A stretch of DNA of 32,000 nt from an uncultured bacterium (GTDB taxonomy: Bacteria > Auribacterota > JACPWU01), in contig CAZXEQ010000003.1 in NCBI GenBank assembly GCA_964640155.1, positions 314,189 through 346,188 of the forward strand. The letters run 5' to 3'. Shown here in pieces: positions 4,617-32,000 of the stretch (position 1 is its first letter; each line of letters begins with the position of its first letter). Both the position numbers and the translations under genes were made by a program. The notes under the pieces are model-generated. The model did not search any database and was not told the DNA's origin. It worked only from the letters and a program-made list of their open reading frames with translations.

Positions 4617-4626
4617 GTTAAAAAAG

Positions 4627-5346
4627 TTAGGCTTTGGCAAATTTTTTCTGAAGTTGAAAAATCTTTTTCCCACCTAATTTTGCGAGTTGAAGCATTTGAT
4701 GCATTTGTGATTCTGTGAATGGTTCGTGTTCAGCTGTGCCTTGTATTTCAATAAAGCGTCCTTGATTGGTCAGGACAATATTCATATCGACTTCTGCTTT
4801 TGAATCTTCTTCATAGCAAAGATCTAGAAGAGGAGTATTTTGGAAAATTCCTACACTGATGGCTGCCACTTGTTCCTTGACTGGAATTTTTTCAATCTTT
4901 TTTTCTGTTTTAAGTTTTTCTAAAGCCATCATGAGCGCAATAAAACTACCATTAATAGAGGCTGTACGAGTTCCTCCATCAGCTTGAATTACATCACAAT
5001 CCACCCAAAGTGTTCTTTCGCCAAGAGCTTTCATATCGACGACACTACGTAAAGCTCGACCAATAAGACGTTGAATTTCTTGGGTACGCCCTCCCACTTT
5101 TCCAGAAGTAGACTCACGCTGTTTCCTGTCCGAAGATGCATAGGGGAGCATGGAGTATTCCGCTGTGATCCAACCTTGATTTTTTCCTTTAAGCCATCGA
5201 GGAACATCTTCTTGAGCAGAAACTGCACAAATGACGCGTGTATTGCCTGTTTCGATTAAAACAGATCCAGATGCACAAGGAATATAGTTTGGAGTAATTT
5301 TAATAGGTCTTAATTCATTCACTTTTCTTCCATCAAGGCGTTTCAT
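4627..5346 (-). CDS. rph: Ribonuclease PH
   Basis: 239 aa. Motifs RPIKITPNYIPCASGSVLIETGNTRVICAVS, GGRTQEIQRLIGRALR and CDVIQADGGTRTASINGSFIAL. It shows the classic rph-rdgB adjacency. Confidence 0.93.
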   Translation of the reverse strand: MKRLDGRKVNELRPIKITPNYIPCASGSVLIETGNTRVICAVSAQEDVPRWLKGKNQGWITAEYSMLPYASSDRKQRESTSGKVGGRTQEIQRLIGRALRSVVDMKALGERTLWVDCDVIQADGGTRTASINGSFIALMMALEKLKTEKKIEKIPVKEQVAAISVGIFQNTPLLDLCYEEDSKAEVDMNIVLTNQGRFIEIQGTAEHEPFTESQMHQMLQLAKLGGKKIFQLQKKFAKA

Positions 5347-5365
5347 TTTATTTTCCTTTTAAGTG

Positions 5366-5887
5366 TTAAAATTTTGGCAAACTTTGAATAAGATTTTTAA
5401 TGAATGGAAATTCAGAAAAAATACGGTATTCAAGAATTTTAAAAACTAAATGAATGTTTTTGGGAGTATCTTTGCCAAGAAAAATTTGAGAGAGCTCGTG
5501 TCCTGCATCTTTAATTAAAGCTCCTAGACTTTCAGATGACAATTTGCTTTCAAGATAATCATGCAGTTCTTTAAGCTCGTTTTCTTTTAGCCATATTGCA
5601 CGACATTCATGACAAACATGGATTTTAATTTTTGATTGAGGATAGCTAATACAGTGAAAGGGTTGAGCGCATGAAGGACAATTTTCATTGCCTTGAAGGA
5701 TTTCATATTTGTCGCGATGTTTCCATAACTCAAGATTGATTAGGGCAAGAGCGGGATCTTTTTTTGTTTCAATTTCTTCTAATTCTTCTTGAAAAATGAA
5801 CATTCCCTGACAGGAAGGGCATGTTTGAATTTCTAATGTACCGTGTTTTTTACTTTCAAAATCATTATTACATGCTGGGCATTTCAT
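5366..5887 (-). CDS. Double zinc-ribbon protein (two zf-TFIIB-like CxxC..CxxC modules)
   Basis: 173 aa. First module: CPACNN...CPSCQGMFIFQEELEEI. Second module: CPSCAQPF...CHECRAIWLKENELKEL. A strong GGAGGT Shine-Dalgarno lies just upstream. Confidence 0.7.
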   Translation of the reverse strand: MKCPACNNDFESKKHGTLEIQTCPSCQGMFIFQEELEEIETKKDPALALINLELWKHRDKYEILQGNENCPSCAQPFHCISYPQSKIKIHVCHECRAIWLKENELKELHDYLESKLSSESLGALIKDAGHELSQIFLGKDTPKNIHLVFKILEYRIFSEFPFIKNLIQSLPKF

Positions 5888-9227: not shown

Positions 9228-12200
9228 GTGGTAAATACAAATTTGATGAAAAAACTTATTACACTATTACTTTGTGTTTCCTTATTAGATATACAGGGTT
9301 TAACCCTGGGATATACAGAAACTCAAAATCCTTCGCAATCCACTGAGCTTAATTCGACTCTTTTATCATCCTGGTTTGAAATTACTTCTCAAAGCAAAAC
9401 TTTTTCATGGAGTAACCCTGGGATCATTCTCATTCGTGATTTACACGCAGATGGCGAAGCTCAGCTTAAAATTGCTAAAGGTCTGGAAGCGATGACCCGA
9501 CAAACTGGTAGTACCCTCGTTCTTGAAGAGGGTGCAGTGGGTAAAATTGACACAGGTTTTCTAGGAACGTTTCCAAATCAATCGATTCGTGAGGAAATTA
9601 CCAAAGAATATGTAAAGAGCGGCTGGGTAAGAGGGCCAGAGTTTTTATCGATTGCACGTTTTGGAGAGTTGGATTTGGAATTGAGAGGAGTTGAAGATCA
9701 GAATTTATATCAAGAGAATTTTGCCCAATATCGAGAGGTGATGAAACACAAAGAAGAGATTGAGACGGGGTGTATATTGCTTAAGAAAGAGCTTATCAAA
9801 GCAAAGAAGAAATTCTGCTCGGTTGAGTTTAGAAAGTTTGAGGAAAAAAGAGAACAGTTCCAAGATAATCAGATAGCATTTGATGAATATGTAAAATTTC
9901 TGCTTCATTATTCTTTTAGCCCTTTCCAACACCCACATCTTTCTCTTTTTAGTGATTTAATGAAAAAGAAAAGCCATATCAATGAAGTGAGTGCAGAAAA
10001 AGAGAAAAATCGATTGGTTGAAGAATTGAGCCAAAAACTTGATAAAGACTCTTTGGGTTCCTTTATTCGCGCCAGCCTTGAGTATCGCTTTGGCCGTATG
10101 AGCGCTCAAGAATTTAATCAGTATTTAAGTTGGCAAGCCGAGAAAATAGGTAAAAATATTAAAAATTATCCTGAGCTTTATAAATTGATTGAGTGGATTA
10201 AGATTCAGGGTGAAGTGGATGGGGTTAAATTATTAGAAGAAATTAAAAGTCTTGAAGAAGTAAATATCAATAAATTAGCTAAAACCACTCAAGAAAAAAA
10301 ATTGAAGGATTTAACCAGACAAATTCAAGCGATTCAAAGTTTTTTAAGTCTTGAGTTAAGCAGGCAAGATTGGGAGAAATATTTAAAGAATACAAAGGGG
10401 TATGATGCGTTAAAAATTTCTCAAGAGCTAGGTAGCATTCTTGGAGAAAAGCCTATTTTAGGCCTTGAGAAAATAAATGGAATTCTTGTTAAAGCTAGAA
10501 AGTTTTATGAGTTAGCAAGAGCAAGAGATCAGATTATTGCTCAAAACTCAATTCGTTCAATGAAGGAAGTTTCTCGTCAGAGACCTGCCCGAACAACCAT
10601 TCTTGTTGTTGGAGGTTTTCATGCAACAGGAGTTCAGGAAATTCTAAATGCTCAAGGAGTTAACTATATTGAGCTGACACCCAAAATGAATCATATACCT
10701 AATGCCAGTCTTTATTTGACACGCATGATGGATCCTCGTTTTAAAATTGGAACCATACCTCTTCCTTGTCTTTTTCAAGAAGTTGTTCAAGCTCTTGCCG
10801 TTACAGTCAGTCAAGATGCTCAGAAAAAAATAGGCATTTTATATATTAATGCTTTGAAAGGGCGCTTACTCTTAGAATTAAAAGGCGATACAGCTGGTGT
10901 TCAGAAAAGACTTTTAGAGGCTTTAGGTCTTTGGGAAAAACAAAGAGGCGAATTATCTGACGGCGATAAGAAAATTTTTAAAATTTTAGAAGAGGAAATC
11001 AAAAATCCATCATCTACAGAATCTGCAGCTTCAGATATTTCTAAGGATGAAATTAGAAGATGGATGGAGGGAAAAGAATACACGGAACTTCATGCCAATG
11101 TTTTAATCAAAATTCTCGAGACTTTTTATTCTGAGAGAAAAGATCTCATTGAATATGCGAAAGATCTTTATCAAAAGAAGTGGGGTAGGCATAAAGTGCG
11201 ACGCCAAATTTTTATTCATCAAGATGGGATGGCCATGGCTCCCGTCTTGACAGCTCTAAACAAAATGGAAGTATTTAAACTTTTTGAGGATGGTCGTTCA
11301 GTGAGTATGGGAGAAATCATTCGAACGACAAAAGGAAGTCCAGGTTATCTTCATGTCGCAATGCGCCTTTTTGTTTCTCAGGGCTGGATGACAAGAAAAG
11401 GTGAGGAGGGTACGGATAATCTGACCTATACCTTGACAGAGGACGGAACTTATATTTTGTCACTTCTGGATTATTATGGGCCTGTGGCTGAGTTTATTGA
11501 TCAAGCGGTTGGAATAGATGATTATTTGTTCGGGAAATCACGTGCCCCTCCTGCAGATGGACAAAAAAAATCTTATGCGCAGCTGATAGAACTCTCTAAA
11601 AATCAATGGAATTTGCCTCCCGAAACAGATTCTCGAAAGAAAATGCTTCGCGAACGTGTGATTCAACAGTTAAACGGAATGCTTTTAGGTCCCACCATGG
11701 TTGCTTTAGGAATGCGTGGCGTTTTTGATCAATTTAATCCAGAAACACATTCAGTCACAATAAATCAAATTCAAGGGAATGCGAAACATCTTAAAGAGGC
11801 TTTTACTCTTTTAGAACAACAAGGATGGTTAACTCGAAACGGAGATGTTTTCACGCTTACTCATGATGGACGATCGGCTGCAGTTTTAGCATCAGCTTAT
11901 GGTGTGACTACTTCTTATCTACCTCTTTTCTCAAAATTGAAAGAACTTTTAAAAGGTCAAAGTAGAGAAGCGCTTTTTCCTCGTGATAAAAATAACAATG
12001 AAACCCATGTCAATCGACCCATGAATGTTTGGGCAAGCGGAGGCGCACATATCGCCTATTTTAAAGAAGCTGATAAAATGATCATTGAAATTTTTAATCG
12101 CCCTCTTGAAGAACAGCCTCGTGGTATTGCAGATATGGGATGTGGGGATGGAGCTTTCCTAATTCACTTGCATGAAATTGTGATGAGGACCAAACGAGGA

Positions 12201-15200
12201 GAGAAGATAAAAGAAACTCTTACGAAAATCTTAGAATTAGAAAGAGAACCTGCTCTTATTAAAGATGGAGGGGCAAAACATCAAGAATATTTATTGGCAA
12301 AAGCAGAGTATGAAAAATATAAATTAGTTATTGTGGGTGCGGATTTTAATAAGGAGCCCAGAATAATTACTCAAGGGAATTTGGAAAAAGCTGGCATTAA
12401 AGATGCAAAAATTATTTTTGGCAATATTAATGATCCTAAGAAATATGCAGAAGATTTGAGGGCATTGGGACTTGATCCTAAAAGTTTGTTACATGTTAGA
12501 TCCATGCTTGATCATAATCGACCCTATGTAACTCCTAAAAATACAGATCATATTCGCGCGGATCGTAAAGCTGATTCGGGTTCTTATGTGAACGACGGGC
12601 AGGTTATTCCCAATAACCAGTTACAGCAAAATTTAGTAGAACATTTAGAGGGCTGGCAAGAACATTGCGTTGGAGATGCAGGGCTGCTTGTGATTGAGCT
12701 TCATACCATTCCTCCGGAATTGGCTGCGACAAAAATTGGAGATACGCTTGCTACGCCTTATGATGCACATCATGGATTTTCTGATCAGTATATTGCTGAA
12801 ATTCCCACTTTTGTAGGAGCGGCAACAGAGGCTGGTCTTGAACTTGTTGAACAGAAGGCCTTTCCAACCACAACTCCTGAAGCTGCAACAGTCAGTATTA
12901 ATTATTTTAGAGCGAGTGCAAAAAAGAAGGTTCAAGTTTCTTGGGCAAGATCGTTTGGTAAAGTCTATGCAGTTCATGATGGTCCTGATGGGATTTATCA
13001 AGCTTTAAGATCTGAAATTACAAAGAAAGATCCACAATTTAATTTTGATTTATTAGAGAAGGCGTATCGATTTGGTGCTGAAAAATATAGGGACATTCGA
13101 CATGATGGAAGACCCTACATTGTTCATCCACTTGAAATAGCTCTTTACTTGGTTCGTGTTCTTGGGATTGTGGATCAAGATGCCATTTTAGCTGCGATCT
13201 TGCATGATTTAGTTGAAGATGAAAATGTGCTTCTCAATGAAATCAAAGAAATGTTTGGTGAAAATGTTAGAGCGCTTGTAGACGATCTTTCAGAAGATTC
13301 TTCATATCTTGAAGAGCAAGATAAAGTTTATAAAGCTCAAAATGGTCAAGAGTTAACAGGGAAATTGGCCATGAAAATAGAACATATTGAGCGAGTCGAT
13401 AAAAAATCCGGGAAATTATGCATTATCATTAAAATTGTGAATCGTTTGCATAATCTTTTGAGTAATGAATATCCTGTACGCAAAGCTAATTACGGAATGA
13501 ATCTTTTGGAAATTCAAAGATGGAGAGTTTTCTTAGATCATCATGTTTCTGATATACCACCTCCTTTGATGGAAGATATTCGTTATTTCTTGGGAAGAAA
13601 TAAAAAATCTCCAGATCTGACGCCTGAGGGAGCAGAGATTACAGTAACACATGACGAGCGAAATGCGCCTTTGGGGAAAAGAATTAAAGACAGTGAAGTA
13701 ACGGAGCTCTCTATTGATGAGGATGGAAGTCTCAAAGCTGCTTTAGTGATTCATGACTCAAATAAGTCTGAAAGTGAAAGGATAAGAGACTCTCGTAAGT
13801 GGAAAGTCGAAGACGTAAAAAAAGCCGGGACAAAACTTCTTTCAGCAAGAAATAAGCTTATGCAAACTCTTGAAGCACGTTTAGCGAATCCTGAAAGCAG
13901 CTTAGCTAAAACTTACCAATATTTGATTGCAGCAGGAAAAATCGAAAACCAAGAGGCATTTAAAAATCTTTTGCTTGAAAAAGCTAAGCAAATGTCTCTT
14001 TTGGTTGTTGGGGATGAACAAGATTTGTTAAGTGCAGTCATTCATCAAGATGGACCTTATATGCATTGTCGTAGGGGTGTATCAGGCCGACCTCCAGCTC
14101 TATGGATGGGGTATATCACTTTAAAGAGAATGTCTGAAGAAATGTTAACAAGAGCTCTTTTAGATGAAGCTTTGCATGTTGCTTTCCCGGAAGAAGAACA
14201 TCGAGATAAAAAAGGAAACGGGACTTTATTACATGATCAAGAATTGTACGAACATTGTGATCAAATTTTAAGATTTGCAAATATTGATTATATTTATCAG
14301 AAAATGTATCAAGCGCAGCAGGGTATTATCGGGAATCTCGAGATTTTGAGAATGGATATAGATACAATTTCAGAAGAAGATATATTAGCTTTAAAGAAGA
14401 TTGCCGATGAACATCCTTCCGATAGAATTTCTTTAGATAGCAGAGAAGAAATAGAACGATGCATAGGAATTTCTAGAAGATTTTTTGATGAGGCAAGAAG
14501 AATTGTTCAAAAATTGCCTTCTTATTTAGAAGATGATGTTCAGGAAATAGCTGAGGAAATCAGAGATGCTATCAGAATTTCTTCTGAGGAGATGAATAAA
14601 AATCTTGATCTTGCTTATCGTCAATGGTTAGAACATCGATTTTTTGAAAATCCTGGAGAATCTCAACCTATTACACCCCCCGCTGCATTTTGCCAGTTTG
14701 ATGCTGCTCCCAATTCTCTTGATGCAATCATGACAGAGATTCGTAAGGCTTATGGGAAAAACCGATTTGATGAGGTTCTCAGGCTTGGGTCAAGTTTAGC
14801 AGATGCCATTCAAAAGGGACTTGCTATTCCTGATGATGTTCATGTGATGATTGGTAAGGGTTTCTTGGATAGGGCAAGAAGAATGAAAACTCAAGGTAAA
14901 ATAGAAAATGCTATTCGAGATTTTGATAGGGCCATAGAAAGTTTTGTAACGATGCGCGATAAAGGAGCGGTTAAGGTAGGGGAAGCTTCTGTGGAAAAAC
15001 CAGTGCTCATTGAAGAAGTAAGTAGAGAAATTGTTGTTTATGCAGAAGGTTATGTTGAAAAGGAAAAAGAAAATAGCAGAGAAATTCCTTTAGAAGTTCA
15101 TTTTGCATTGGGTCGCGCTTATTTATGGTCTGCTATATGTGAAAAATCCGAAGGCAATATTGCAAAGGCCATGCAGCACTGTGCTCGTGCAATGGATTTT

Positions 15201-18200
15201 TTGACACATTATGCAGCAGCCACTCAAACACCCGTAGTAAGGGGCGCAGCATTGTTAGGGGCACGAAAAGCTCCCACTCAAGGATTTAATGATAATGCAA
15301 TGCTTTATTTATCTCAAGCGATGATAGAAAATGGAATAATTCAAATGTTTGCAGGATCTTATGATGCTGCACGTCAAATTTTTCAGCAGACACTGACGTC
15401 AAATACAAGGTTAGGCGAGAAAAAAGCAGAATTACAAAAATTTGTGCAGATATGTAAAGATTTTATTTCCGTTGATAAAGAAATAGTTCAGTTTTCAGGA
15501 AGCAAGGATGCTGATGCAAGCTCTCTTTTGGGTAAATTAGCAGATTTAGAATCTAGAACTCGTAATAATGAAGATTTGCCATGTGCAGCAGCACAAATTT
15601 TTCTTTATCGATGGATGATTTATTGGAAATTGAAAGATGCTTCTCAAGCCGAGACAAATTTTCAAAAAGCTTTGGAGTCTCGTGATGATCGCTTTTTAAT
15701 TGCATTTAGGAGTTTAATCAATGCAATGAGTAAGGCAAAAGTCCTTTGGAATAGAGATTTTTTACAAGCAATTGCTGCAAAGAAAGGACAGCCCTTTTTA
15801 AGACGCTTCTTAAGAGAAATAGTGAAGGATTATTATAGAAGTTTGGATTTGAAAGAATTTCGTGAAGCTGTCATGGAAGTGCTAGGTTTTAAAAGTTTTC
15901 GTGAATATGTTGAATGGCTACTCCAAGAAGAACAAGAAAGAGCTGTAGTAGGGGTTGCGCCAAAAAAAGCAGACGTAGGCTCTCCTATTAATCATCCAGG
16001 ACTTGTTGCCCCTTTAATAGAAGCTATACAGGTCTTGCCTAGCGATGATGAGAGAAAAGTATTGGCAGCTAGGCCGGATATTTCTGCTACTCCTGTCCTT
16101 CAAGCAGCTTTAAGAGGGGAGATTCGTCCGATAGCAGATGTTATTAGAATTTCTTTGGAATTAAGGGATGAGTTGGAAAAAATTCAAAAGATTGATGTAG
16201 AAGTAGGTGATCAAATTGAAATAAGGCAAAAGTGCATTGACATTGCGAAGAAATTTAAAGATGTATGGCTTTTCACGGAAAGTGACTTGGTAAGTGCTTT
16301 TTGGGATAAGTTCTTTACGGTTTTTTCTGGAGAAATGAATCCTGATATAGAGGAAGCACTTAAAATAGGACTTGCCTGGATAGAGAGACATTCTCATAAG
16401 TCTCATGAGCATCAACGTAGCTATATGTATTATCAATGTGGGCAAATCTATTATATGACGAATCTTCGTGCTGAAGCTACGGCATGCTTTCAGAAAGTAA
16501 TTGAGCAAAGCTCGTCCGCTGAGTTAAAAATAAGGTCTTATTTTTCCCTAGGTTCATTGCTTTACTTAGAAGTTCGAGATTTAGAGGATGGGGCTGAAAA
16601 GACTTCAAAATTAAAGCAAGCCAAGGACCTTGTTGCTCGCACATTAACGCAGGAAGCACTCAAGATTGGCGCGATAGATGCTTCTGTTGGTCATATGATG
16701 CTTTCTTATATTTGTGCTGAGCTTTGTGAGTATAAGGAGGCTTATGAGCATTTGATGAATGCAAAAACCTATCCTGGAAATTTTCTTTATGCTAAGCGTA
16801 AGTTTCTAAAAAGTTTTGGAGAAAGGTTTGAGAGTTTGACTTCCGGAGAAGATTTAAAAGTTTATAAAGATTTTTTAGTTTTTGCATGCAAACAAGAAAA
16901 TCAGGAATTAAGAGATCAGCTTATTCGATTCAGAAGCGTTAAAAATCGAGCGTGGGTGAGAGCCGTGATGGAAGTTTTGAGTAATAAGGGGATTGCATTA
17001 AAGCAAAGAGAAGCAGCTATTGCCTTTTTGCGAGGGATGGATTTAGAGACGGAAAGTGCTGGTTTGATTGGAATTCTTCGAGAGCAAGCGGGTTTTGCGC
17101 TGAAACAACAGCCTCATTTTTTGTGGGAGGGATTGGAGCTTTTAAGAACTTGTCCGACGCCTGAAGCAAAAGCATTTATTCAAGAAATTCTCGACAATGG
17201 CAATTATGCGAAGGCTGCAGGATATCGCGTGGAAAAAATAAATACGATTGCTAAAGCAAGAGATCAATATGAGAGTTTGCCGGATGTTTTTGAGGTGTCT
17301 GATGAGCGAGCCAAAACATCAAAATATTGTTTAACTCGAAAAGAGTGGAGTCAAATGCTTCTAGATTATTGGCCTTCTGATTCAGAGTGGGATGAATATG
17401 TTTTGGAAAGAGAGAGCTCTAAACTTTCTGATAAGTTTGAGCGTCTTAGCGTTCATGAAATACGTAAACAAATTGAAAAAGCTCGTGAAGAAGGTCTTGC
17501 TTATGATGCAATCATTGGACAATTAGAAGCATTAAATGTTTCAAGAATTAATGTGAATGAAGAGCTTAAGAATTCTCAAATTCGACTTGCAAGAGCTCAG
17601 AAACTCATGGATGAGGGGAATTTTTCAGAAGCAGCTGTAATGCTCTATGAAATTTTAACAGGTCGTTCAAGAGTTCGAGTCGTAGGACTGGAAATGATCA
17701 TTGCTCATGAGAGGAATGGAGAAGACAAAGACGTTTTTGTTGTTGTATTAAAAGCTTGGGAATTACTTGAAAGAGCAAACTATTTTATGGAGACAAGGCC
17801 TGGGGATTCTATGCCAACTCTTGAATATGCAAAAGCATTAATTGAAAAATGGAAAGATAAAGATGAAGAACTTCGAACAAAAGATCCTGTTGATATTATG
17901 GAGGTTGTTAGGGCTTTGTATTTCTTGGAGAGACCACAAGATGCGCTAAGAGTTTTGGAATTAATTCCACCCGTTTTTTTTGATAACTATGGCTATTTTG
18001 CTCTTTGGCGCCTGAGATTAATGTTTAAGACTGACGATGATCGTTTTTTGGGTGAATATGAACGCGTGAAAGAAATGACAGATCCAAAGGCAAAAAATCT
18101 ATTAGGTAAATTTTGTAGAGAAAGAGGGTTGTTTAGCGAGAGCATGGAGGCTTTTCAGGATGCATATACCGGTGCAGATTTTAAACTGACAAATACAAAT

Positions 18201-21200
18201 GAAACCAGACCGGGGGCCTTTATAGATGCTGTCCAGGCAGCACAAGTTCCTATTCGTGAAGTTTTTGAGGATGCATTTCTTTCATGTTTTGACATGATGC
18301 TAGGATCAAGCTTACGAAATAAGGGGGCAGATTTTGTTCGTGTTCACCTTCATGAGAATGCATTTGCCGATATGATTTTAATGTCAGCAGAAATGCTTTA
18401 TGAAGCGGGCTGTTATTTGGAAGCCTTAAACTTATTAAATCAGCGCTTAAATCAAATAAAAGAAAAAAAACATCTTATTGAATATCATCAATGTCGAGGA
18501 AAAATTCTTGCTGCTTTGAATCGCGATGATGAAGCTTTAAAAGCGTATGAAGAAGCAGTTAAAATTGATGCGAGTAAATTTGAACATTGGAGAGATTTGA
18601 TAGGAATTTATTATGAGAAGAAAGATCGTTCAAATACTATCCGTTGTATTAAGAGGGCGATGAGTGTAGGTGCGTCTGCTGAGACAAGTTATTGTGTGGA
18701 AGATATATTAAAACGTGTGTTGGGTGGTGAAGATGATTCCAAGCTCTGGTTAGCGGATCTTTTGAGCGATCATTCAATTGCAAGTCCAGTAGAAGGCATT
18801 GTTTTTGGTGGTGAAGGTGAAGAAAGAAATGTTCAATTTACGGCTCTTGAAGCGCAAGTAGAAAAAGTTTTTGGTGCAAAAATAAATTTTGTTTTTTCTG
18901 AAAATGATATTAAAACAAAAAACATCAGTGATGAAATCTTTAATAAGATAAAGACCGCTACAAAAACCAAGAGTCCTTATCTTGAAGAAGTTTTAGGTGA
19001 AGGAATGTTTAATGCAATGGTGCAAGAAGCCATGCGAGCAGATTGCCTAGGAGAAATTTTAAATCTTTTATTTTCTGAAGCAGCTTCAAATATTACTGTT
19101 TCAAAAGGGAAAGGAGTGGCAAAGGCAGGTCGTAGGAATGAAACCCTCAAAGTTGATGGACCCATCATAAATGCAAAATTAATTAACATGGGAGTTCAAG
19201 TGATTCAGAGACTTAAAATTCAAGGCGATACATCTCTTCTAGAGAAAATTGCTAAAGGCCCCTGGGTTGCTGAGACGCCAGAATTTCAGAAAGCACTTAA
19301 AGGTGAAGTTGTTAGAGTTTCTACTGCAGCACTCACACCCGATGCTCAAGGCCCACCTTCTCCAGGAAAAGATCCTGATGCTACCGCAAGCGAAGTTTCT
19401 GGAGATGAAGATGCTGCCATCCTAGCTGCTTTGAAAGAATGTATCCAAGCTTATAGTTCTAATCAGACGCTGTTAGCTTTTCAAAAAGCCCTTGAACTTG
19501 CTCCCCGGTTTAAAAATTTATCAAATAATCCTACGAAAAATCCAAAAGACTTAGAGACCTTTGCAGGAGAAGCAGCAGTGTTGATTGATATTCTGTCTAA
19601 GTATGGAGATATTCGTTTTGATGCCTCTTTGGAGGAAGGATTAAAGGCTGTTTTGGATTGGACTGTGCGTGCAGGTCCTGCTTTTAAAATTCTTCGAGTT
19701 CTTGCGGTACATTATCGTGGAAAACTTTATTTGAAGGCACAACAGTTTGCAAAAAGTCGTGCGTTTTTTGCAACTGCTTTGGCTTTGGATCCATCTGAAG
19801 TAAAGAATGTTTTGCCTGACATTGCTGAGGCGTACTTTCAGGAGATGCGAATGTCTAGTGACGTAAATCAAAGGAGAAAACTTGCCCAAGAAGCAATCCC
19901 TGTTATTGAAAATGATTCTTCATGCAACTCTCTTATTGCTTTGGGTTGGTTTTATGCTGAGGTTGGGAGTTATGACAAAGTTTTTGGTGTCATAAAGAAG
20001 TTGAATGCTCAAAGGGCAGTTTTGGCCAAAGGAGGCAAGGACCAGGAAAAAGTTGATGTCGATTTGATTTTTAGAAGCATGATGGCGCGATGTTTTGAAA
20101 CTTTGCGTGAAAAAGATATTGAAACGCAGGTGAGATTTATTCAAGTTCTCATAAGTAATCAGTTAGAGTCTGCCTTCGCAGAAACTTTAGAAAGAGGTAA
20201 GGAGCAAGGGCCTTTATGGACACAGGCTTTGATTATTGTGTTAAATCAGGAGATGTCTAGTACTGAAAAAGATCGATTAATTCAACTTTTAAAGGGAGCT
20301 GACTTTCGAGGAGCTGAAGAGCAGTGGCTAGAGATTTTGAGGCAAAAAGCAGATTTATCTGATGCTAAGAAAAAAGAAGCTTTTTTTAAATTTGCTATCC
20401 CTGTTTCGGCGCGTTGTTTTTCTCTTGAAGTAAGAGACTTTTTACAAACATTAAAGCCAGGGTTTTCTTCATCAAAAGATACTACGTTGGCTCAAGCCAT
20501 CGATCAGGCTGTTGCATCAATTGAAGGAAATCAGGCTATTGAAACAAAAATCTCTGAAGGAACCAGTTATTTAACCCTCAAAGAATGGCAAGCTTCTTTA
20601 AGAAGAGAATTGCCTTTGGCTGGAGAATGGGATGAATGGATGTTAGAAGTTGAAACTGCTAAATTTCTTGAAGAATTCCCCTGGATGAAGGCAAGAAAAA
20701 TTCGAGATGAACTGGTGAAAGCGCGTCAGTCAAAATTAGATATTGAAGCTGTGCGGTTCAATCTTAAAACTTTAGAAGAAGAGATACAAAGACAGTTTTT
20801 CAAGGATAAAAATTTAAGTCAACTCGAGTCCATTGAGCAGGAAATTCATAAATTGGTTGAGAATGGTCAATGGGATGAGGCTTTTGGCTATATTACTCTA
20901 GCCAGAGAAGGAAATGCAAAAAAGGGATTCCCGGGATATTATCAACTTTGGAGAAATGCATCAGGGGAGGAAAAGGATAAATATCTCAAGAAACTTCAGG
21001 AGATCAGAGATTTTGCAGAACATTGGTTCTTTTTATGGAGATTCGAAAGTGACTTGAAAGAAGCAGCAAAGGGTCAAAAAGGCTCGGCAATCGATATTGC
21101 TTATGAAAGAATGGTAAAGCCGTATATAGATACTCCCTCCAAATTAGCTTTGAAAGCTCCTGTCGATTTAGGAGAGATTGCAACCTGTTTTTATGTTGTA

Positions 21201-24200
21201 GGGGCAAAGCGAAAAGACACTGCTTTGCAGGATAAGGCCAGGGAAATTCTTGAATCCATCAATTTACAAGAAGTTTTAAAGACAGATTCTGTCAATATTC
21301 ATCGAGTAGTTTCGGCGTTTAAAAATATATTGGGGTATGAGAGGGCTAAAGCCGTTCTAGATATGATTGATCTGGCGATCATTAAGAAAGACCAGAGATT
21401 AAGAGGTCTTTATCTTTTGGTGTTTAGTCGTTTAAATGCTGAGGATGCTTTTGTAGTAGAAGCTGATTCTTTTGAACGAGATTTTCCAGATCATGCGCCT
21501 CATTATCTAGGATTAACCTATGAAGCACGTGAAAATCAGGAAAAAAGTCTCGCTTACTATGATCGAGCTTTTCAAGAAGCCCAAATTCATGGTTGGAGTG
21601 AAAAATATCTTAGAGAACACAGCCTCTGGTTGCGACCCGCTGGGATGGCGAGTGTAGAATATAGAATTAGAAGGCTTCGAGGGCTTGTAACTGATAGCGA
21701 ATATCATTGGGTGGAATTGATTGATGTGCTCTCATCAAGTGGTCGCTATTTGGAAAGTATGAGACTTGCAAAAGAAAAAATGAGAAGTGTTTCACCAAAA
21801 AATCAAATAGAGCTTCAATGTCATATTGGAGCTTGCTATGAAAACATGGAACGAAGAGAAGAAGCTTTTACTGCTTATGAAGCTGCGCGACTAAAATCTA
21901 CTGCGAATGTTGAGACATGGGATAGAATCCAAGTTTTTTGTGTGAGCAGTTTTCTTGTAAGACATCCAAAAGCAGGTGAATGGATAAAACATTTTTATAA
22001 TGAAGCTATTAAAACAAGAAATACAGGGATTATAGATTCCTTTAAAAATTATTTTAGAAAACATGGTCATCCCCTCGATGTAAATGCTTCAGGAGATATT
22101 ACGATCAGGTTTTTAGCGCTTGAAAAAATAGTGAAAGAAGCATGTGATTTGGAAATCACTATTCAGATGCCCTTAAATATAGCGTGTTCCTCTGTGGTAG
22201 ATCGAGAAATTGGCAAAATCGTAATCCCTCATTTAAAAGAAAAGTTTCCAAATCTTGTGGGGTTTATAGGAGATGAAATTATTTCTGGTCCTCACTTTGA
22301 TTTGGAGGGTAAATCTCCGGATTTTCTTCTAGGGCTTGAAGAAAAATTATCTAAGAAAGAGACAAATATTGCCGATGCTATTGAAGCAGGGACTTCCATT
22401 ATAAGTTCTGGTTTAGTGAAAGATGTTAAAGCATTGGTGAATTCACTTTGGACAAGGGTTCAGGCAGGAGATGCTCAAGCAAAGATTTGGTTAGGGGCTT
22501 TGGCTCAAGTTGAGGGAGTAACTGGAGATTTTGGGGATATTAGTATTGAACTTGAAGATGGAAATAAAATAATACGATTCAAGAAAATGGAAGAAGATCT
22601 CCAGAGAGATCATGGAGTACATGTTGATTTGGTAGTGAGAGTTTCTGAGTTTAAGGATTATGACCCGAGAGCCGTTTTAGATGAAATTGAAGGAAGAATG
22701 AGTGCGGATATTGAGGCAAGATTAGAAAGCTCTTCAAATGTGACTCGAGCATTATTTGAGAAATGGAAAAGTGCTCTTGTTTCAGGTTCATTAAAAGATG
22801 CTGGGGTTTTAATCAGGCCACTTTGGAAAAGAGTGAAGGCGGCAGATGCTCAAGCCAGACAATGGCTAGCAGATCTCGTGGGGCTTGAACAAGGCAGAGG
22901 AGATTTTGGAGAAATAAGGATTGAGCTAGGCGCTAAAGGGAATGAGCTTTGTTTAAATCAAGTCGGAGCTGACTTGATTGAAGAAAAGCTTTTGAGAGAT
23001 GACTCAAGAGATGAAATGCTTGCAGGGCTTCAAAATGCGTTAACATTTGGACTGGTGTCGAATCCTGCAATTTTAATTAATTCTCTGTGGGCGAAGGTCG
23101 TGAGTGGGAACCCTCAGGCTGCGTTAGCGCTTGGAAGAGTTGTTGAGACTGTTGCGGATGTAGACGGTGAATATGGCACGTTGAGGATTGAGACACGTGA
23201 GGGTGGTGTTAAAGTGTTACATCGTCGGGATTTCGAAGATCAATTTGAACAGGCTTTTGGTGAGAGAATGCCTTTTGTTCTTACTCCTGCCGAATTGAAA
23301 GAATCTGGTTTGAAAGATGTGCGTGCTGAAATAACTGCCTATGTTCAGCGTAAACTTTTAGAAAAAAGTGACGGTGAGACGCGAACAAAAGTACTTTCAG
23401 GCTTAAAAACTTTTTTTGATTTAGGGTTAGTTTCTACAGAAACTTTAATTGAATCTTTTTGGACTGGCGCAGTCAGTGGGGATGCTCAAGCAAGAGAAAG
23501 TTTATGTGATGTGGCTCAAATGGATGGAGTTGTAGGACCATTTGGGAAGTTAAACATTCAAGCAAGAGATGATGGTAGGAAAACTTTTCGATTTATCGAA
23601 ATTGAGGAGAATTTTGAGTCAACTTTTTCATCAAAGAGCAATCTTTCGGTTTCAATAGAAGAATTTAAAAAAACAGGTTTTGATACAGTTGAGGAAAGAA
23701 TAGCGGGATGTGTTTTAGAAATATTCAAAACTGCCGGGCAAAAGGATAAAGATGTTATTGCTGGGATTGATCTTGCGTTAGAAGCGGGGTTGATTAGAAA
23801 TGCTGGTGCAATAATGCGCACTCTTTTAGTAGAAGTTAAAATGGGGAATGATCGAGCTAGAAAATGGTTATGCGATGTGGCAAGACTTGAGCGAGCTAAA
23901 GGAGATTTTGGAGAAATAAGTATCGAATCGGATACCCGAGGAAAAGTTTTACGTTTTAAGGAAATGCAAAGACTTTTTAGAAATGCATTTGAAGAAGGAA
24001 TATCATTTGTTGAACCTATTGATCAATTTGAAAAAGAAGGTTTGGCATTAATACAAAAGAGAATTGTAGGTTTTGTAGAAAAGAAAATGGCTCAAAGTGA
24101 TGAAATGCGAGGGAAAATGCTCAAAGGATTTGAAGCTGCAGTTGCTTCTGGTTTAGTAAGCGATGCGGGAATTTTAGTGAGATCTCTTTATGAAAGAGTG

Positions 24201-27200
24201 CTTAAAGGTGAAAGTGAAGGGAGAGTTTTTCTGACAGAACTTGCGGCTCGTGAAAAAGTTTTAGGTGATTTTGGTGATATTGCAATTGAAAAAGTGGATG
24301 AACAAATTGTGATACGTTTTCGGATGACATTGGGTGAATCTACAGAGTTTACTGCTTCTCCAGAAGAGTTTGGTCAATTGAACTTGCCGAAAGCTAAAGA
24401 AGCCATTACCCAAAGTTTTGAATCAGATTTAATGAACGAAGACAGGGGAGTTCGAGAGGCTGCGATAACTCGTTTTAAACAAACACCCATTTTTTCACTA
24501 TTAGCGGAAAATCTCGTAAGATCTATTTGGGGGAAAGTGCTGCAAGGAAATGCGAGCGCAAGGCGAGCTTTATGCGTTTTAGCAAGAGATGCTGGTGTCA
24601 GAGGAGATTTTGAGGTTATTGAAATTTTAGATTCTCCTGCTTTAGGTGTAAAATTACGATTAAAAGATATGGAGAGTAAATTTAATGAGATTGTTGGAAA
24701 ATCAGTTACTTTTATGATGGATGTTGTTGAGTTTGAAGGAACTGGTTTGTCTCGCATTCAAGCGCAGATTATTTCAGGACTTGAAAGGGGATTGTTATCC
24801 GATGATGAGCCAATTCGAGCAGCAGCTTTTGCTGGATTCAAGAAAGCTTTAGAATTTGGGCTTGTAACCGATGCAAGTATTTTGGCTAAACCTCTGTGGG
24901 AAAAGGCTGCAAAGGGCGATGCTTCGGCAAGAAACGATTTGTGTGATTTCATTGCAGCGGGCCATTTAAAAGGAAACTTTGAAGGGTTTAGTGTTGTAGA
25001 AGATGGGAGAGCAGTAAGGCTAAGTGCAGCAGAAAAAGAATTAGGAGAGGCATTTCAAGGAATTAATCTTACGATTTCAATCGAAGAATTTAGAGCTTCA
25101 GGTTTAGCTGGAATACAATCAAAAATAATTCAGTATGTCATCGAAAAATTGGAAAGTGTTGATGAAGCTGAGCAAGATAAAGGTATTGTTGCGCTTCAAA
25201 AAGCTTTACAGACACATATATTGCCTGATGCACGAGCTATCGTGAGTCAGCTTTGGAAAAAAGTCGAAGCAGAAAATGTGCAGGCCAGAACAGCTTTGGT
25301 CAAACTTCTTTTAAATGTTGAAGGAGATTTTGAAGAAGTTGGGATTGAAACTGTTGGAGAGAAAAAAGTTTTGCACTTGAAGGAAGAGGAGAGAAAGTAT
25401 CAGGAAATATTTGGGGAAAAAATAAATATACTTGTTCCTGTTTCCAGATTTTTAAGTATTGGTTTAGATTCGACTGCTCAATCAATCATCCAATATACTG
25501 AGACGCGTTTATCTGTTGCGGATGAAAATGCTCGTACACGGATATTTGCTAAATTTAAAAATGCTATAGATCAGGGTTTGATTAAGAATGCGAATGATCT
25601 GGTTGGTGCTCTTTTAGATAGAGTCATTAGTGGTAAAGAAGAAGATAAATGGGCTAGAGTTGCTTTAAGCAGATTCTTATCTCTTAATTGGGCTGAAACT
25701 GAGTTTGATGGAATTGTTATTGAAAAGAGATCAAAAGGTAAAGGAAGTGATGAAGAAAAAGTAATTCATTTTTTAAGGATTGAAAATGAATCAAAGAAAA
25801 ATTTTTCTTTAGGTAAAAAGGATATTCTTTCCATTACTTTAGTGGAGCTAGAAACACAAGGGAGTGAAGGAATTCTTAATAAAATAATGGGTTTTATTAA
25901 GAGTGAACGAAAATATCTTCTTGAGATTTTAGATGAAGTAAAGTTAAGAGAATTATTGCGTGAAGGATTAGAAAATAGAGATATGGAAGATCTGGTTGTA
26001 GACTTATCTTATTTTGCAGCAAAGAAATTAAGAGAAACAAGGATTACATATCTTCCTTTAAATTCTATTCGTGAATTATTGAAGGATCAAAAATGCGAGA
26101 GAAAAGATCTTACACAAGTTTTAGAAATGTTGCAGTCTTTGAGGCGCTTGGCTGGCGGAGGAAGTGTAAGTTTTAAAAAAGTAGAGGAAGAAACGCAAGA
26201 TGTATTAGTTATTACTCTTCCTGCTTCAGTTCCAAGAGAAACAATGAAGCAATATTTAGACAGAGAAGATGTAAAGGGCCGTTTAGATCCTGTCATCTTA
26301 GGTTATGCAAATGAATGTGAATCTAAGAAGGCGCCTATTTATAGAGTTATTTTAAGTGATGGTTCTCTAGTAGATAGTGGGATTGTGGATCGTGGAACTT
26401 TAAAAAGTAAACAGATTTTAAAACGACTTCCTCAGAGAGGATATGCAAGTTTGGAGAAAATAGAAGGAGAGAAGGGAGGTGTATTAGTATTTAATCTTTC
26501 AGATCTGATTTCAAAAGAAACTATAAAGCAATATTTTGAAGAACAAAGGGTAAAAAGTTATTTAAAATTTATTATTGAGAGATATGTGGATGAATATGGG
26601 TTTGAGAAAGCGCCTTCTTATCAAGTCCTTTTAAGTGATGGTTCTCAAATAGATGATGAGGGTGTTAAAGAAGAAATAGAAGTTATCATTAAAGCTATTA
26701 TTAATGAAAGAAAAAGGATGGCTGAGGAAGCTGCGGCTTCTAAAAATGGTGAAACAGCAATTGATGGTAATGGATTGAATGGTGGCGCTGGAACCAATGG
26801 TGCTAATGGCGCAAATGATGGTATTACTCATGTAGAAGCGGGGAGTGTTGGTGTAGAAGTGGTTATTGGAACTGAGACTGGAGCATCTGAAACAGAAACG
26901 GGTGATGGACGAGGATTTTCTAGTTTACAAAAAGAAATCTATAATAGACCTGTAAGAGAAGGGTTAAAGAGTGGGGGGTGGGTCGGAGCAACTTTTGATA
27001 GAGAGAAAGTCACGACTGTATCTCGGATTGCCAATGATTCTGGAGGGGAAGACTTTAATTCTACTCAAACTTTAAATGCTAATGATCAGAAAACGTTAAC
27101 TCAAGTTATTGAATCTTTATCTGAAGAAGACAGGGCTCATCTTCAAGGATTAGAAGAGTTAGGGGGCAAAGTCACGGTTGTTTTTATTGATGGGCTGGAT

Positions 27201-28988: not shown

Positions 28989-29095
28989 TTTTGTGAAAAC
29001 GCTGTCTTCTAAATGTAACCCGTGTATTTCCTACTCTCTGTCAGACGAATTTGTAGAGAAAATTAAATGTGCAAAGAGCAGGGAATAAAAAGTAT

Positions 29096-32000
29096 ATGAA
29101 GAAATATTTTTGCAAATTCATAACCATTCTTTTATCTCTTTTTCTCTTTTTTGATTTTACGACAAGAGAAGCACAACTTTTTGCTTCAGATTCTTCAGAT
29201 CGATTGAAAGCAGGAGAGATTTTAAAAGAGTCGATTGACTTTAAAATTTCTGACTTTCAAAAGGCACCTCCAGTAGCTATTCAAGGTATTCTCACGTCTT
29301 TTCTAAAGTATTTCTTTTTGCAATCTTATGAATATTCTATTTCCTTGCTCACGCACCGGCATATCTCGTTTCAAGGGATTCCTGTGCCTTCACTTTTTGA
29401 TGAGATGATGGAGACTTTATGGGAATTAATGAGAGAGCAGGAGTGGAAAGGTTTAGCTCGAAGATATATGAGAGAGCTCCGCTTGCGGTTAGTTGAGGAA
29501 CATCAAGGGGATGTTAAAAAGGTGCAAAAGGAGCTTTTGAGAAATATAGATATTTGGGAGGGGAATAAATTAAAACTCTCTCAGAAGAAAAAGGGCTTTG
29601 CTGTTCTTTTTGAAAGTATAGATGATGAAGAGGAAGAGAATTCAGGGCTCTCACAAAAAGAAAAGGATTTCTTTGCGCTTCTAAGGCAAGAGGCCTTAGG
29701 ACAAAAAGGGCCAGCAGCTCAGTTACTTCCAGAGCAACTAGAGAAAGTGATACATAGAAGTATGGCTCATGCGAAGACCGTTATGAAAATATTTGAAAGA
29801 TTTCTACAAAATCAAGTTGCACAGGTGAGGCCCATTTATGAAAGAGCAAAAGTAACTCATGACGAAGAAATAAAAGCTGGAGAGTTAATATTTGAGATTT
29901 TAGATTTTAGGCCTGATTTTAAGAGAGATCCTCCCGATTTTTCAGGTCAGAAATTTGCCGAAGAACTTTTTGAGAAAAAGATTAAAAATTTTGGAGGCCG
30001 TAAATATTTATTTGATCAGATTTTGTTTGAGCTGCGTAATTTAGATGATATGGATTCTAGGGCGTCATTAGTATTGATGCATGTTTTGGCCTGTTTTTTT
30101 AAAGAGGATTATTTATCGAAACAAGGGGGAGTGACTTTATCCAGGGAACAATTTGAAAGACTTTGGAGGATTTATCGTTCAATCGACTATGATTGTGCGG
30201 GAGTCGCCATGGGTTGCATTGCGCAAGTGATTTATGATCCAAGAATTAAAGTTGTAGGATTTACTCAAGATCAAATCCATTCACGGGCAAAAAAAGATTT
30301 TGAAATATTTTTAAAACGATTCATACACAATCCCAATCCGCGCACTTACAATCTATCTATTTATTGGTCACAGTATTTTTTGACTCAGGATTCTGAGTGG
30401 CTTGATGAAGTGATTGAAAAGATGAATTCTTTTGGTCGTCGGTCAGAAAAATTTAATCTAATTTTACGGGGATTATTGTCTAAGGTTTGTCAGGATGGAA
30501 AATTACGGGAAAATATTAATGAGTTTGCGAATAAATTTATTCAACCTTTAGATATTGCTGTATCCACCAATACTCCTGAAGATGCATGGAAAGCTATTTG
30601 GGGCACCACCGATCAACCCCATCTTGAAAATGCGAAAAAATTTCTAGAAACAGTTACTTCTTTAAGAGAGCTTTATCCTTATCAATTGACTTCGTCTGAT
30701 GCTACACCTCCACTTCAATTTGCTATTAAAAATGGTATTTATTTCCCAATTGGAGGAGGGCTTTATGTGACCCCGATAACTCAATCTTTTAGGCGACATA
30801 CTGTTTTTAAATTAACCAATAGTGGACAGGTTACTTTTGCTTTTGAAGTATTGATTCCTGGTGAAAATACTGATCGACGTCTGATTGCAACTGAACAAAG
30901 GTGGAAGGTTTCATCGGAGTTGCTCGAAAGCTTTCCTCTGCATAATTATTGTCCTACTCCTCTCGCAATGATGGATTTGCCAAAGGGTTCATACTCTCTT
31001 TATGGCCAGGAAATTGAATTTAGTTCTAAAACTCCTTTGTCGGTCATGGGATTTCAATATGGAGAACAAGAAGATGGGAAGCGCCTAGACTTTATAACAA
31101 GACCCATATTGGATGAAATTGCTAAAGAATCAGGTTGGGATTCAGATGCTTTGTCTTTTGAAGTTGCCAAACAAGTAACCGAACTTACCGCAGCAACTCA
31201 TGCTCTGGGGTATGTGGGGCATAATGGTAAATCTTCTGATCATCATACTGGAAACTTTAGATTGATTTTGACAGGAGATAGAGCTAGGCCCATCAAAATA
31301 AAGTTGGTTGGGGATTTTGAGGCTTTCACCAAAGTTAGTTATGAAGATCAGATTAATAAAATGGGGAATGATGTTAATAATATTGTTCCCAGACTTAGCC
31401 TAATTTTGGATATGGATGCAGAAAAACTTAAAAAGATGTTTGAAGAAGCTAGAGATTTACCCCATATACGTGAAGTTTCTGATAGAAAAAGAAAAGAATC
31501 GCTCAAAAATGATTTTCGAGCTCTTCTAGTAATAAATCCAGATAACAAGGATCATTTAGAAGAATTATTAGCTTCTGTAAATGTCCGTGATTGTGAGCAA
31601 TCTGTTCGAGAACAAAATAATGTAATAACTCTTGGTTTTTTCTTTGAGGATGAATTTTTAGATAAGCATGGAGGTCTTGTTTTATCTCAAGCCCAGTATG
31701 ATCGGTTATGGAAGATTTATAATGAAGCGGCAGTAGCTCCAGAATATGCGGCGATGATATTGGGATATATCTCTAAAGTTTTAAATGATGATAGGATCTC
31801 AATTGAAGGTCAGCCTGATAAGAAACAAGTTCGAAAAACATCTGCACAAAAGATAGTTTCTGCTTTAGAGATTACATCTCCTACAGATAATCCTAAACAG
31901 GCTTGGAAAGCTATTTTTGGAACAACTGATCAGCCTCATGTTCAAAACACTCAAAAGTTTATAGAAATGGCGACACTCTTAAGAAAAATTTTCCCTTATG
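29096..32000 (+). CDS. Large secreted protein, 3'-truncated by the window end (at least 968 aa), with a roughly 500-aa internal repeat unit containing a kinase-like core
   Basis: The ATG at 29096 is preceded by AGGGA. I translated it by eye with no stop codon through 32000. The ORF track reports no closed + strand ORF in this 2.9 kb. The N-terminus MKKYFCKFITILLSLFLFFDF is signal-like. Confidence 0.85.
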   Translation, partial: MKKYFCKFITILLSLFLFFDFTTREAQLFASDSSDRLKAGEILKESIDFKISDFQKAPPVAIQGILTSFLKYFFLQSYEYSISLLTHRHISFQGIPVPSLFDEMMETLWELMREQEWKGLARRYMRELRLRLVEEHQGDVKKVQKELLRNIDIWEGNKLKLSQKKKGFAVLFESIDDEEEENSGLSQKEKDFFALLRQEALGQKGPAAQLLPEQLEKVIHRSMAHAKTVMKIFERFLQNQVAQVRPIYERAKVTHDEEIKAGELIFEILDFRPDFKRDPPDFSGQKFAEELFEKKIKNFGGRKYLFDQILFELRNLDDMDSRASLVLMHVLACFFKEDYLSKQGGVTLSREQFERLWRIYRSIDYDCAGVAMGCIAQVIYDPRIKVVGFTQDQIHSRAKKDFEIFLKRFIHNPNPRTYNLSIYWSQYFLTQDSEWLDEVIEKMNSFGRRSEKFNLILRGLLSKVCQDGKLRENINEFANKFIQPLDIAVSTNTPEDAWKAIWGTTDQPHLENAKKFLETVTSLRELYPYQLTSSDATPPLQFAIKNGIYFPIGGGLYVTPITQSFRRHTVFKLTNSGQVTFAFEVLIPGENTDRRLIATEQRWKVSSELLESFPLHNYCPTPLAMMDLPKGSYSLYGQEIEFSSKTPLSVMGFQYGEQEDGKRLDFITRPILDEIAKESGWDSDALSFEVAKQVTELTAATHALGYVGHNGKSSDHHTGNFRLILTGDRARPIKIKLVGDFEAFTKVSYEDQINKMGNDVNNIVPRLSLILDMDAEKLKKMFEEARDLPHIREVSDRKRKESLKNDFRALLVINPDNKDHLEELLASVNVRDCEQSVREQNNVITLGFFFEDEFLDKHGGLVLSQAQYDRLWKIYNEAAVAPEYAAMILGYISKVLNDDRISIEGQPDKKQVRKTSAQKIVSALEITSPTDNPKQAWKAIFGTTDQPHVQNTQKFIEMATLLRKIFPY
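30091..30690 (+). repeat. Internal repeat of the downstream protein, copy 1
   Basis: FFKEDYLSKQGGVTLSREQFERLWRIYRS...AMGCIAQVIYDPRIKV and TNTPEDAWKAIWGTTDQPHLENAKKFLETVTSLRELYPY. Confidence 0.75.
30740..31330 (+). other. Protein-kinase-like fold core (motif-level call)
   Basis: A Gly-rich loop PIGGGLYV (GGG at 30752-30760) is followed 19 aa later by TVFKL (Lys at 30809-30811). A catalytic-loop-like HALGYVGHNGKSSDHHTGNFRL follows (D at 31238-31240, N at 31253-31255). Then comes a DFG-like IKLVGDFEAF (D at 31313-31315). Confidence 0.4.
31631..32000 (+). repeat. Internal repeat of the downstream protein, copy 2 (cut by the window end)
   Basis: FFFEDEFLDKHGGLVLSQAQYDRLWKIYNE...AMILGYISKVLNDDRISI and TDNPKQAWKAIFGTTDQPHVQNTQKFIEMATLLRKIFPY. 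DNA similarity to copy 1 is still visible around GC(A/T)TGGAAAGCTATTT. Confidence 0.75.

Follow-up and report, generated by a model that had tools for sequence, protein, structure and literature searches.

We analyzed a stretch of 32,000 nucleotides from an uncultured bacterium (assembly GCA_964640155.1, contig CAZXEQ010000003.1, positions 314,189 to 346,188 of the forward strand), which is called the window in the following. More than half of it is taken up by one open reading frame (ORF) encoding a giant protein, and within this protein resides an HD domain of the RelA/SpoT homologue (RSH) hydrolase type, resembling Mesh1 and the small alarmone hydrolases (SAH). The positions of the features are compiled in Table 1. 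From the N- to the C-terminus the giant protein comprises a signal or anchor segment, an N-terminal region, an AprA-type methyltransferase, the HD domain, a TPR scaffold, tandem repeats and a C-terminal part. Its true start is likely the ATG at nt 9246, which gives a product of 6,580 aa. An identical protein of that length (P0001), starting at this ATG six codons on, is found at NCBI, where its contig measures 357 kb; it forms a singleton cluster and was the top match of the exhaustive search described below. The base composition was even across the window (GC 0.34-0.39). A spurious ORF was rejected, as the frame stays open in sequence of 37% GC.

Table 1. Features of the window; nucleotide positions refer to the window, residues to the giant protein unless stated otherwise.
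Feature	Position (nt)	Strand	Residues	Basis or remark
Giant ORF	9228..28988	+	6,586 aa from GTG	uninterrupted, 19.8 kb
N-terminal hydrophobic segment KKLITLLLCVSLLDIQG	9252..9314	+	9-29	Kyte-Doolittle scan
AprA-related methyltransferase module (AprA_N, winged helix WH_AprA, Methyltransf_36)	11169..12935	+	648-1236	Pfam
RSH-type (HD_4, Mesh1/SAH-like) hydrolase-fold domain, complete	12984..13604	+	~1253-1460	profile, phmmer against PDB, AlphaFold2 (AF2), Foldseek
HD1 Arg	13098-13100	+	R1291	conserved (column counts)
HD2 His	13125-13127	+	H1300	conserved, metal ligand
HD3 and HD4	13203..13220	+	H1326-D1327, E1330-D1331	all conserved
HD5 and HD6	13440..13454	+	N1405, R1406, H1408, N1409	N1405 replaces the invariant metal-ligand Asp; R1406, H1408 and N1409 kept
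Eleventh copy of the ~115-aa repeat	18618-18938	+	3131-3237	same jackhmmer search of the ORF
Ten tandem ~115-aa repeats	22335..25892	+	4370-5555	jackhmmer of one unit against the ORF
Second long ORF	29093..32000	+	at least 969 aa	runs off the window; own N-terminal hydrophobic segment

A previous inspection of this DNA, made from the letters alone and referred to here as the sequence-only reading, had recognized a complete (p)ppGpp-hydrolase HD domain at nt 13044-13475. These nucleotides indeed encode the quoted peptide in frame within the giant ORF (aa 1273-1416). The Pfam profile HD_4 (PF13328) reached 42.8 bits when the full protein was searched and 48.5 bits with an excerpt of 267 aa (E 6e-11 to 1e-12), the gathering score being 27.2. 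A phmmer search of PDB sequences retrieved Bacillus subtilis Rel (7e-14), human Mesh1 (5e-13) and Thermus thermophilus Rel (7e-13), and judged by these scores the matches to HD_4 and to Rel and Mesh1 are far beyond chance. Pfam aligned positions 2-84 of the 156 profile positions only, i.e., the first half of HD_4. The whole domain is present, since the alignments with Rel run through the 'KLADRLHN' block and the predicted structure is that of the entire fold. Aa 1240-1480 were modelled by AF2 from an alignment of 10 sequences of the clade described below; the model reached a mean predicted local distance difference test (pLDDT) score of 85.6 and a predicted template modelling (pTM) score of 0.84. 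Its top 50 Foldseek matches in the PDB were exclusively RSH hydrolases (Mesh1, SpoT, Rel, RelA, RelH/SAH and a (p)ppApp hydrolase), with a best E of 1.4e-6 and target-normalized template modelling (TM) scores of 0.73-0.75; Mesh1 in complex with NADPH and with 3'-phosphoadenosine 5'-phosphosulfate (PAPS) ranked among the top matches. Among viral models, SAH-like proteins of phages and giant viruses were matched. Neither Pfam nor NCBIfam disclosed a RelA_SpoT synthetase (SYNTH), TGS or ACT domain anywhere in the giant ORF, and TIGR00691 matched over model positions 11-121 of 687 only. A long RSH (Rel/RelA/SpoT) was rejected for this reason. The segment is thus a genuine, fully folded RSH hydrolase domain of the Mesh1/small alarmone hydrolase type, which lies, as had been proposed, in a non-canonical context free of synthetase and regulatory domains.

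In RSH hydrolases the HD1 Arg and the HD6 Asn serve in base binding and the HD4 Glu-Asp in nucleophilic attack, while Mn2+ is held by the HD2 His, the HD3 His-Asp and the HD5 Asp, corresponding to H34, H58, D59 and D122 of RelHCg (PMC9293644, JBC 2022). HD1-HD4 and HD6 are intact in the giant protein, so that 13 of the 14 key residues are found, including the catalytic Glu-Asp, the base-binding Arg, Tyr and Asn, and three of the four metal ligands (H1300, H1326, D1327). At HD5, 'KIVNRLHN' of the giant protein aligns with 'KLADRLHN' of Rel, which places an Asn where Rel has an Asp. The codon is AAT (nt 13440-13442), one transition away from GAT. Column counts revealed how exceptional this residue is. 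The 150 best representatives were aligned by phmmer; 91 of these sequences cover HD5 and 90 of them have Asp, the single Asn being that of the giant protein itself. Metagenome loci (L081-L160) supplied 77 more homologues, all of which have Asp in this column as well. These 77 are ordinary Rel/SpoT sequences collected with an over-generic clade pattern ([LI][FL]HD[LV]xEDT) and were used for this count only. Altogether, Asp was present in 167/167 other aligned homologues and Asn only in the giant protein.

These results modify the sequence-only reading, according to which every conserved block is reproduced and the domain looks catalytically competent. The alignment with Rel and Mesh1 homologues confirmed the HD and ED dyads as well as the HD2 and HD3 ligands. 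The HD5 Asp, on the other hand, is lost, and the very peptide quoted earlier reads 'NRLHN' where Rel has 'DRLHN'. That reading had itself named loss of a metal-binding residue as evidence against it; with one of four ligands missing, the predicted activity appears doubtful. As the carbonyl oxygen of Asn is able to coordinate divalent metals, activity of the domain is doubtful but conceivable. Literature searches for mutational data on the HD5 Asp returned nothing usable.

To place the domain among its relatives, an exhaustive search was needed because word-indexed searching misses the divergent clade to which it belongs: a word-indexed homologue search with the HD region found nothing and, with the clade alignment, four proteins only. 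We therefore compared aa 1240-1480 by phmmer with 1.84 billion representative proteins (E up to 1e-3). Out of 11,285 matches only a handful were close. They comprise two stand-alone proteins of 270 aa each (P0002, P0003), a protein of 461 aa (P0004), a partial one of 1,286 aa (P0005), three giants of 2,944 aa (P0013), 5,321 aa (P0008) and 3,137 aa (P0009), and the further close matches P0044 and P0022; P0005 and P0013 are named Candidatus Omnitrophota by NCBI. In a midpoint-rooted neighbour-joining tree of 84 well-covered HD regions, the giant protein fell into a clade of nine members, which the root separated from 75 ordinary Rel/SpoT/SAH sequences. Besides the giant protein, the clade consists of the two 270-aa proteins and of giant or fragmentary proteins, two of which are those named Omnitrophota. 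Its members share an N-terminal helix, the motif 'RDDGRxY', a beta-hairpin insert, the motif 'GRLAxKxEHxxRV' and a C-terminal 'ExxxWxxFL' helix. A scan of genome contigs with the methyltransferase and HD region yielded no relative, and a scan of metagenome contigs with the clade alignment detected ordinary Rel/SpoT loci only, its pattern being too generic. On the basis of the searches and the tree, this clade of RSH-type hydrolase domains is rare and distinct.

In five of the nine clade members (P0004, P0005, P0008, P0009 and P0013) a SMODS-associated NUDIX domain (PF18167, Sa_NUDIX) is located directly upstream of the HD domain. The region concerned is aa 3734-4049 in P0008, which also has a class-I methyltransferase, aa 1917-2246 in P0009, which has a protein-kinase domain (Pkinase), and aa 2328-2638 in P0013, which has an adenosine-deaminase-like stretch (A_deaminase). 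The NUDIX partner is absent from the giant protein of the window. The recurrence of the pair suggests a conserved cassette of two nucleotide-degrading enzymes inside giant proteins, two of them Omnitrophota-named. P0008 possesses a clear N-terminal hydrophobic segment; those of P0009 and P0013 look similar by eye yet stay below the hydropathy threshold. AxA-like cleavage motifs occur in P0008 and P0009. The gene context of P0002 was uninformative, consisting mostly of unannotated genes. We consider the clade and its pairing with NUDIX in putatively exported giants to be more interesting than the copy flagged by the sequence-only reading, which is the sole member with a damaged active site.

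A methyltransferase lies beside the HD domain, as had been noted before, and immediately precedes it. AprA_N, WH_AprA and Methyltransf_36 all scored above the Pfam thresholds (E 9e-81 for Methyltransf_36, 2e-27 and 5e-23 for the other two), and the AprA MT1 structure (PDB 6b39) matched with an E of 3e-63. The module is a full-length homologue of AprA MT1, a metal-dependent C-methyltransferase of polyketide synthases (PKS), and shares 42-44% identity with stand-alone proteins of ~550 aa that are widespread in cyanobacteria, Acidobacteriota and other groups. Such stand-alone 'AprA-related methyltransferases' of ~550 aa constitute a large uncharacterized family. Here, the AprA-like module is embedded in a giant protein that is devoid of acyl carrier protein (ACP) and PKS domains.

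The hydrophobic stretch at the N-terminus is the only segment of the giant protein resembling a transmembrane (TM) helix in the Kyte-Doolittle scan, apart from a buried core helix of the HD domain. Two lysines (Lys-Lys) stand in front of it and acidic or neutral residues behind it; by eye, this n-region (KK), an 11-residue h-region and the sequence IQG fit a signal peptide. The segment may accordingly serve as a Sec signal peptide or as a signal anchor of N-in orientation, most of the protein then lying outside. Of the signal peptide claimed by the sequence-only reading, a signal-like segment was supported by hydropathy and by eye.

The remaining parts of the giant protein gave few matches. 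For the ~600 aa between the hydrophobic segment and the methyltransferase (aa 30-647, nt 9315-11168) no family match was obtained; its sequences 'IRDLHADGEAQ' and 'VVGGFHATGV' may be reminiscent of TIKI/ChaN/erythromycin-esterase-like domains. A TPR-like helical scaffold, identified by TPR profile matches, connects the enzyme modules to the ~115-aa repeats. The consensus of the latter is built around 'GLVxDAxxLVxxLWxRVxxGDAQARxWLxxL...GDFGxIxIE'; the repeat had no database match, and its DNA copies were too diverged for Tandem Repeats Finder (TRF). Sequence searches of Pfam, NCBIfam, PADLOC and PDB found nothing in the C-terminal region, and AF2 modelling of aa 6100-6586 from the single sequence gave no usable structure (pLDDT 43). 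In this region, 'GGASLWRSEKDTTLDVD' at nt 27723-27773 (aa 6166-6182) resembles the Pol-beta nucleotidyltransferase motif (G[GS]-x9-13-DxD); it had no Pfam, NCBIfam or PDB match. At nt 16000-28000 the coding strand of the giant ORF showed a strongly positive GC skew (0.2-0.4), far above that of the flanking housekeeping genes. Scans of the window for Rfam families and DNA tandem repeats were empty, and promoter and terminator scans around the ends of the giant ORF revealed nothing above shuffled sequences.

The housekeeping genes flanking the giant ORF are the 3' end of dnaE, purB, rph, rdgB, an aminotransferase gene, murI and an amidase gene. PurB shares 98% identity with its counterpart in a Candidatus Auribacterota metagenome-assembled genome (MAG), the next best match (75%) belonging to a groundwater 'Chlamydiae' MAG. 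Exact-protein look-ups with purB and murI retrieved no record. Because of these matches we assign the source to an Auribacterota-like member of the radiation related to Planctomycetes, Verrucomicrobia and Chlamydiae (PVC) and not to the Omnitrophota themselves. The 6-kb contig of the closest MAG (L001) does not include the giant gene, and the locus of the 'Chlamydiae' MAG (L002) is not syntenic with the window. Aa 96-192 of the second long ORF are paralogous to aa 510-607 of the giant ORF (35% identity, E 8e-10); no Pfam match was found for this ORF. It contains internal duplicated blocks and, by eye only, a kinase-like 'DHHTGNF...VGDFE' motif.

Taken together, we consider it moderately probable that the HD domain is a genuine Mesh1/SAH-like module belonging to a rare clade that is spread among exported mosaic giant proteins, and that the copy studied here is attenuated or repurposed. 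Members of the clade would remove the 3'-(pyro)phosphate, in a Mn2+-dependent manner, from (p)ppGpp/(p)ppApp-like or related 2'/3'-phosphorylated nucleotides, and hydrolysis of the 3'-(pyro)phosphate of alarmone-like nucleotides was most likely the ancestral function of the clade. Plausible alternative substrates are NADPH or PAPS, since Mesh1 complexes with both were among the top structural matches. The domain may represent one enzymatic payload of an exported giant protein, acting on the cell surface or, upon contact, within another cell. By analogy, an action on nucleotides of a target cell, which the sequence-only reading had brought up, is plausible because clade relatives in giant signal-bearing proteins adjoin SMODS-associated NUDIX, kinase and deaminase domains. 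In the copy of the window, the fourth metal ligand has lost its carboxylate while every other catalytic or base-binding residue is kept; for that reason it would probably be an attenuated, a metal-shifted or a solely nucleotide-binding module.

Several points weigh against this interpretation. The exchange of Asp for Asn at HD5 argues against full activity, and for every member of the clade we infer function and substrate. Export is read from hydropathy alone, secretion-system genes were not found in the window, and enzymes depending on S-adenosylmethionine (SAM) and on nucleotides have no obvious substrate outside the cell. The adjacency of methyltransferase and HD domain is not conserved, as HD_4 was present in none of the 120 best methyltransferase relatives, and the nearest of them, a fragment of 1,192 aa encoded by a 'Chlamydiota' MAG, likewise lacks an HD domain behind its methyltransferase. 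An orthologue of the exact giant protein was not found by the homologue and genome-contig searches.

The loss of a metal ligand, unique to the giant protein, can also be explained by a pseudoenzyme or a decaying module, in which catalysis has ceased and the domain is retained for nucleotide binding or sensing or for structural purposes, or is the remnant of a recent inactivation within a rapidly shuffling mosaic. Domain combinations in these giants are indeed shuffled and not conserved, and inactive HD domains such as the pseudo-hydrolase of RelA are known in the RSH family. However, the RelA domain has decayed at multiple residues, whereas a single change is seen here, and with the other motifs kept and the fold confidently predicted, inactivation would have to be recent or binding would have to be under selection. 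We regard this explanation as possible, but hold it only tentatively.

The nearly intact set of key residues and the confident fold would likewise be expected of a fully active, delivered effector, as proposed by the sequence-only reading. In a prey or host cell, such an enzyme would hydrolyze alarmones or further pyrophosphorylated nucleotides and thereby suppress the stringent response or an alarmone-based abortive defence, Asn1405 ligating the metal by its carbonyl oxygen. Other phosphoesterases naturally employ Asn to bind metal, and the N-terminus of the giant protein is signal-like. Precedents for the parts of this scenario exist: phage SAHs neutralize alarmone toxins (PMC7229694), and RSH synthetases that are exported have been described (PMC12691689). 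On the other hand, Asp at HD5 in all other homologues points to strong selection for the carboxylate in active enzymes, and Pfam, PDB and other sequence searches of the giant protein found neither delivery machinery nor a release protease. A fully active effector is therefore rather unlikely in our view.

If the N-terminal segment served as an anchor only, methyltransferase and HD domain could act in the cytoplasm on metabolites of the producer, including its own (p)ppGpp pool. This would supply SAM- and nucleotide-dependent enzymes with the cytoplasmic substrates they need, and it agrees with a 2026 preprint (10.64898/2026.06.07.730766), which reads many Omnitrophota giants containing methyltransferase and HD domains as anchored in the inner membrane and facing the cytoplasm. 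But the charges on both sides of the single, extremely N-terminal segment argue for an N-in, C-out orientation with the bulk of the protein outside, and AxA-like cleavage motifs are seen in the relatives P0008 and P0009. We thus judge a tethered cytoplasmic regulator to be improbable. A sequencing or assembly artefact hiding a true GAT (Asp) codon of an ordinary clade member, for which one G-to-A change at nt 13440 in the single available sequence of the giant protein would suffice, is very improbable given the uniform base composition, the intact 19.8-kb frame and a prior for an error at one specific base that we estimate to be far below that for a real lineage-specific substitution.

Beyond the preferred reading of a Mesh1/SAH-like module in exported mosaic giants, a bolder proposal may be formulated, to which we give little credence at present. 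An unrecognized clade of RSH hydrolases, typically placed behind a SMODS-associated NUDIX domain, might be a payload of Sec-exported giants of putatively epibiotic or predatory Omnitrophota and Auribacterota, and might erase (p)ppGpp, (p)ppApp or signals of the type used by cyclic-oligonucleotide-based antiphage signalling systems (CBASS) in contacted cells, as the hydrolase counterpart of the exported alarmone synthetases; the Asn variant of the window would then trap nucleotides or work as an enzyme with shifted metal use.

The known roles of RSH hydrolases are those of cytoplasmic regulators in the stringent response, of antitoxins and of counter-defence enzymes of phages. If our interpretation is true, the presence of a separate clade inside signal-bearing giants of bacteria that are uncultured and possibly depend on a host would bring alarmone chemistry into interactions between cells and would complement the exported alarmone synthetases (EAS) discovered in 2025. 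The domain also offers a concrete, expressible module of 200 aa with which the function of the enigmatic giant proteins of these phyla can be probed, and as a natural Asp-to-Asn variant at the fourth metal ligand it bears on the question whether embedded domains are active enzymes or pseudoenzymes.

Among known systems, Mesh1 and the SAHs (Pfam HD_4; PDB 3nr1, 5vxa, 7qod, 6yvc) share with the domain described here the fold, the HD1-HD4 and HD6 motifs and the lack of synthetase and regulatory domains. They are, however, proteins of ~180-200 aa, whereas the domain of the window is embedded at residue ~1,270 of 6,586 aa, is situated on a separate branch with clade-specific N-terminal helix, beta-hairpin insert and C-terminal helix, and has Asn in place of the HD5 Asp. 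The size of a stand-alone SAH (~150-250 aa) is thus far exceeded by the giant protein; the two clade relatives of 270 aa do stand alone. Rel/SpoT proteins gave the best sequence matches of the hydrolase domain (B. subtilis Rel), but the giant protein differs from them by the missing SYNTH, TGS and ACT domains, by a context that is not ribosome-associated and by its signal-like N-terminal segment.

The RSH classification distinguishes 11 SAH subfamilies and reports that phage SAHs neutralize toxSAS toxins (PNAS 2020, PMC7229694). PbcSpo and PaSpo from that study are stand-alone RSH hydrolases erasing toxSAS-made alarmones in conflict, and the HD model of the window structurally matches phage proteins. 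Unlike the giant protein, PbcSpo and PaSpo are small and cytoplasmic, act in the encoding or infected cell and have no giant-protein or signal-peptide context. A 2025 mBio paper (PMC12691689) describes EAS with Sec signal peptides. With a catalytic domain of the RSH superfamily following a Sec signal peptide, alarmone chemistry is implied to take place outside the cytoplasm of the producer, as putatively in our case; these EAS are SYNTH domains in small proteins, whereas here a hydrolase domain resides in a giant one. An exported hydrolase did not appear in those passages of the paper that matched a term search.

An architectural parallel is provided by the giant multi-enzyme proteins of Omnitrophota ('Archaeovorins'), which are established (bioRxiv 10.1101/2023.11.21.568195, 10.64898/2026.06.07.730766). 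According to these preprints, they contain methyltransferases and NUDIX hydrolases, mostly bear a signal or TM segment and are proposed to act on prey cells. RSH-type hydrolases and ppGpp are not mentioned in the main text of either preprint; the term 'HD domain' is absent from the 2023 preprint, and the 2026 preprint lists 'HD-domain regulators' generically only. The protein of the window differs from these giants in that its host is, by purB, a Candidatus Auribacterota, in its length of 6.6 kaa as compared with 10 kaa and more, and in having no type II secretion system (T2SS) or pilZ neighbours within the window. It resembles them in its very long ORF, its N-terminal signal/TM segment and its mixture of methyltransferase, hydrolase and TPR/repeat modules, and the nearest relatives of its HD domain are Omnitrophota giants carrying NUDIX.

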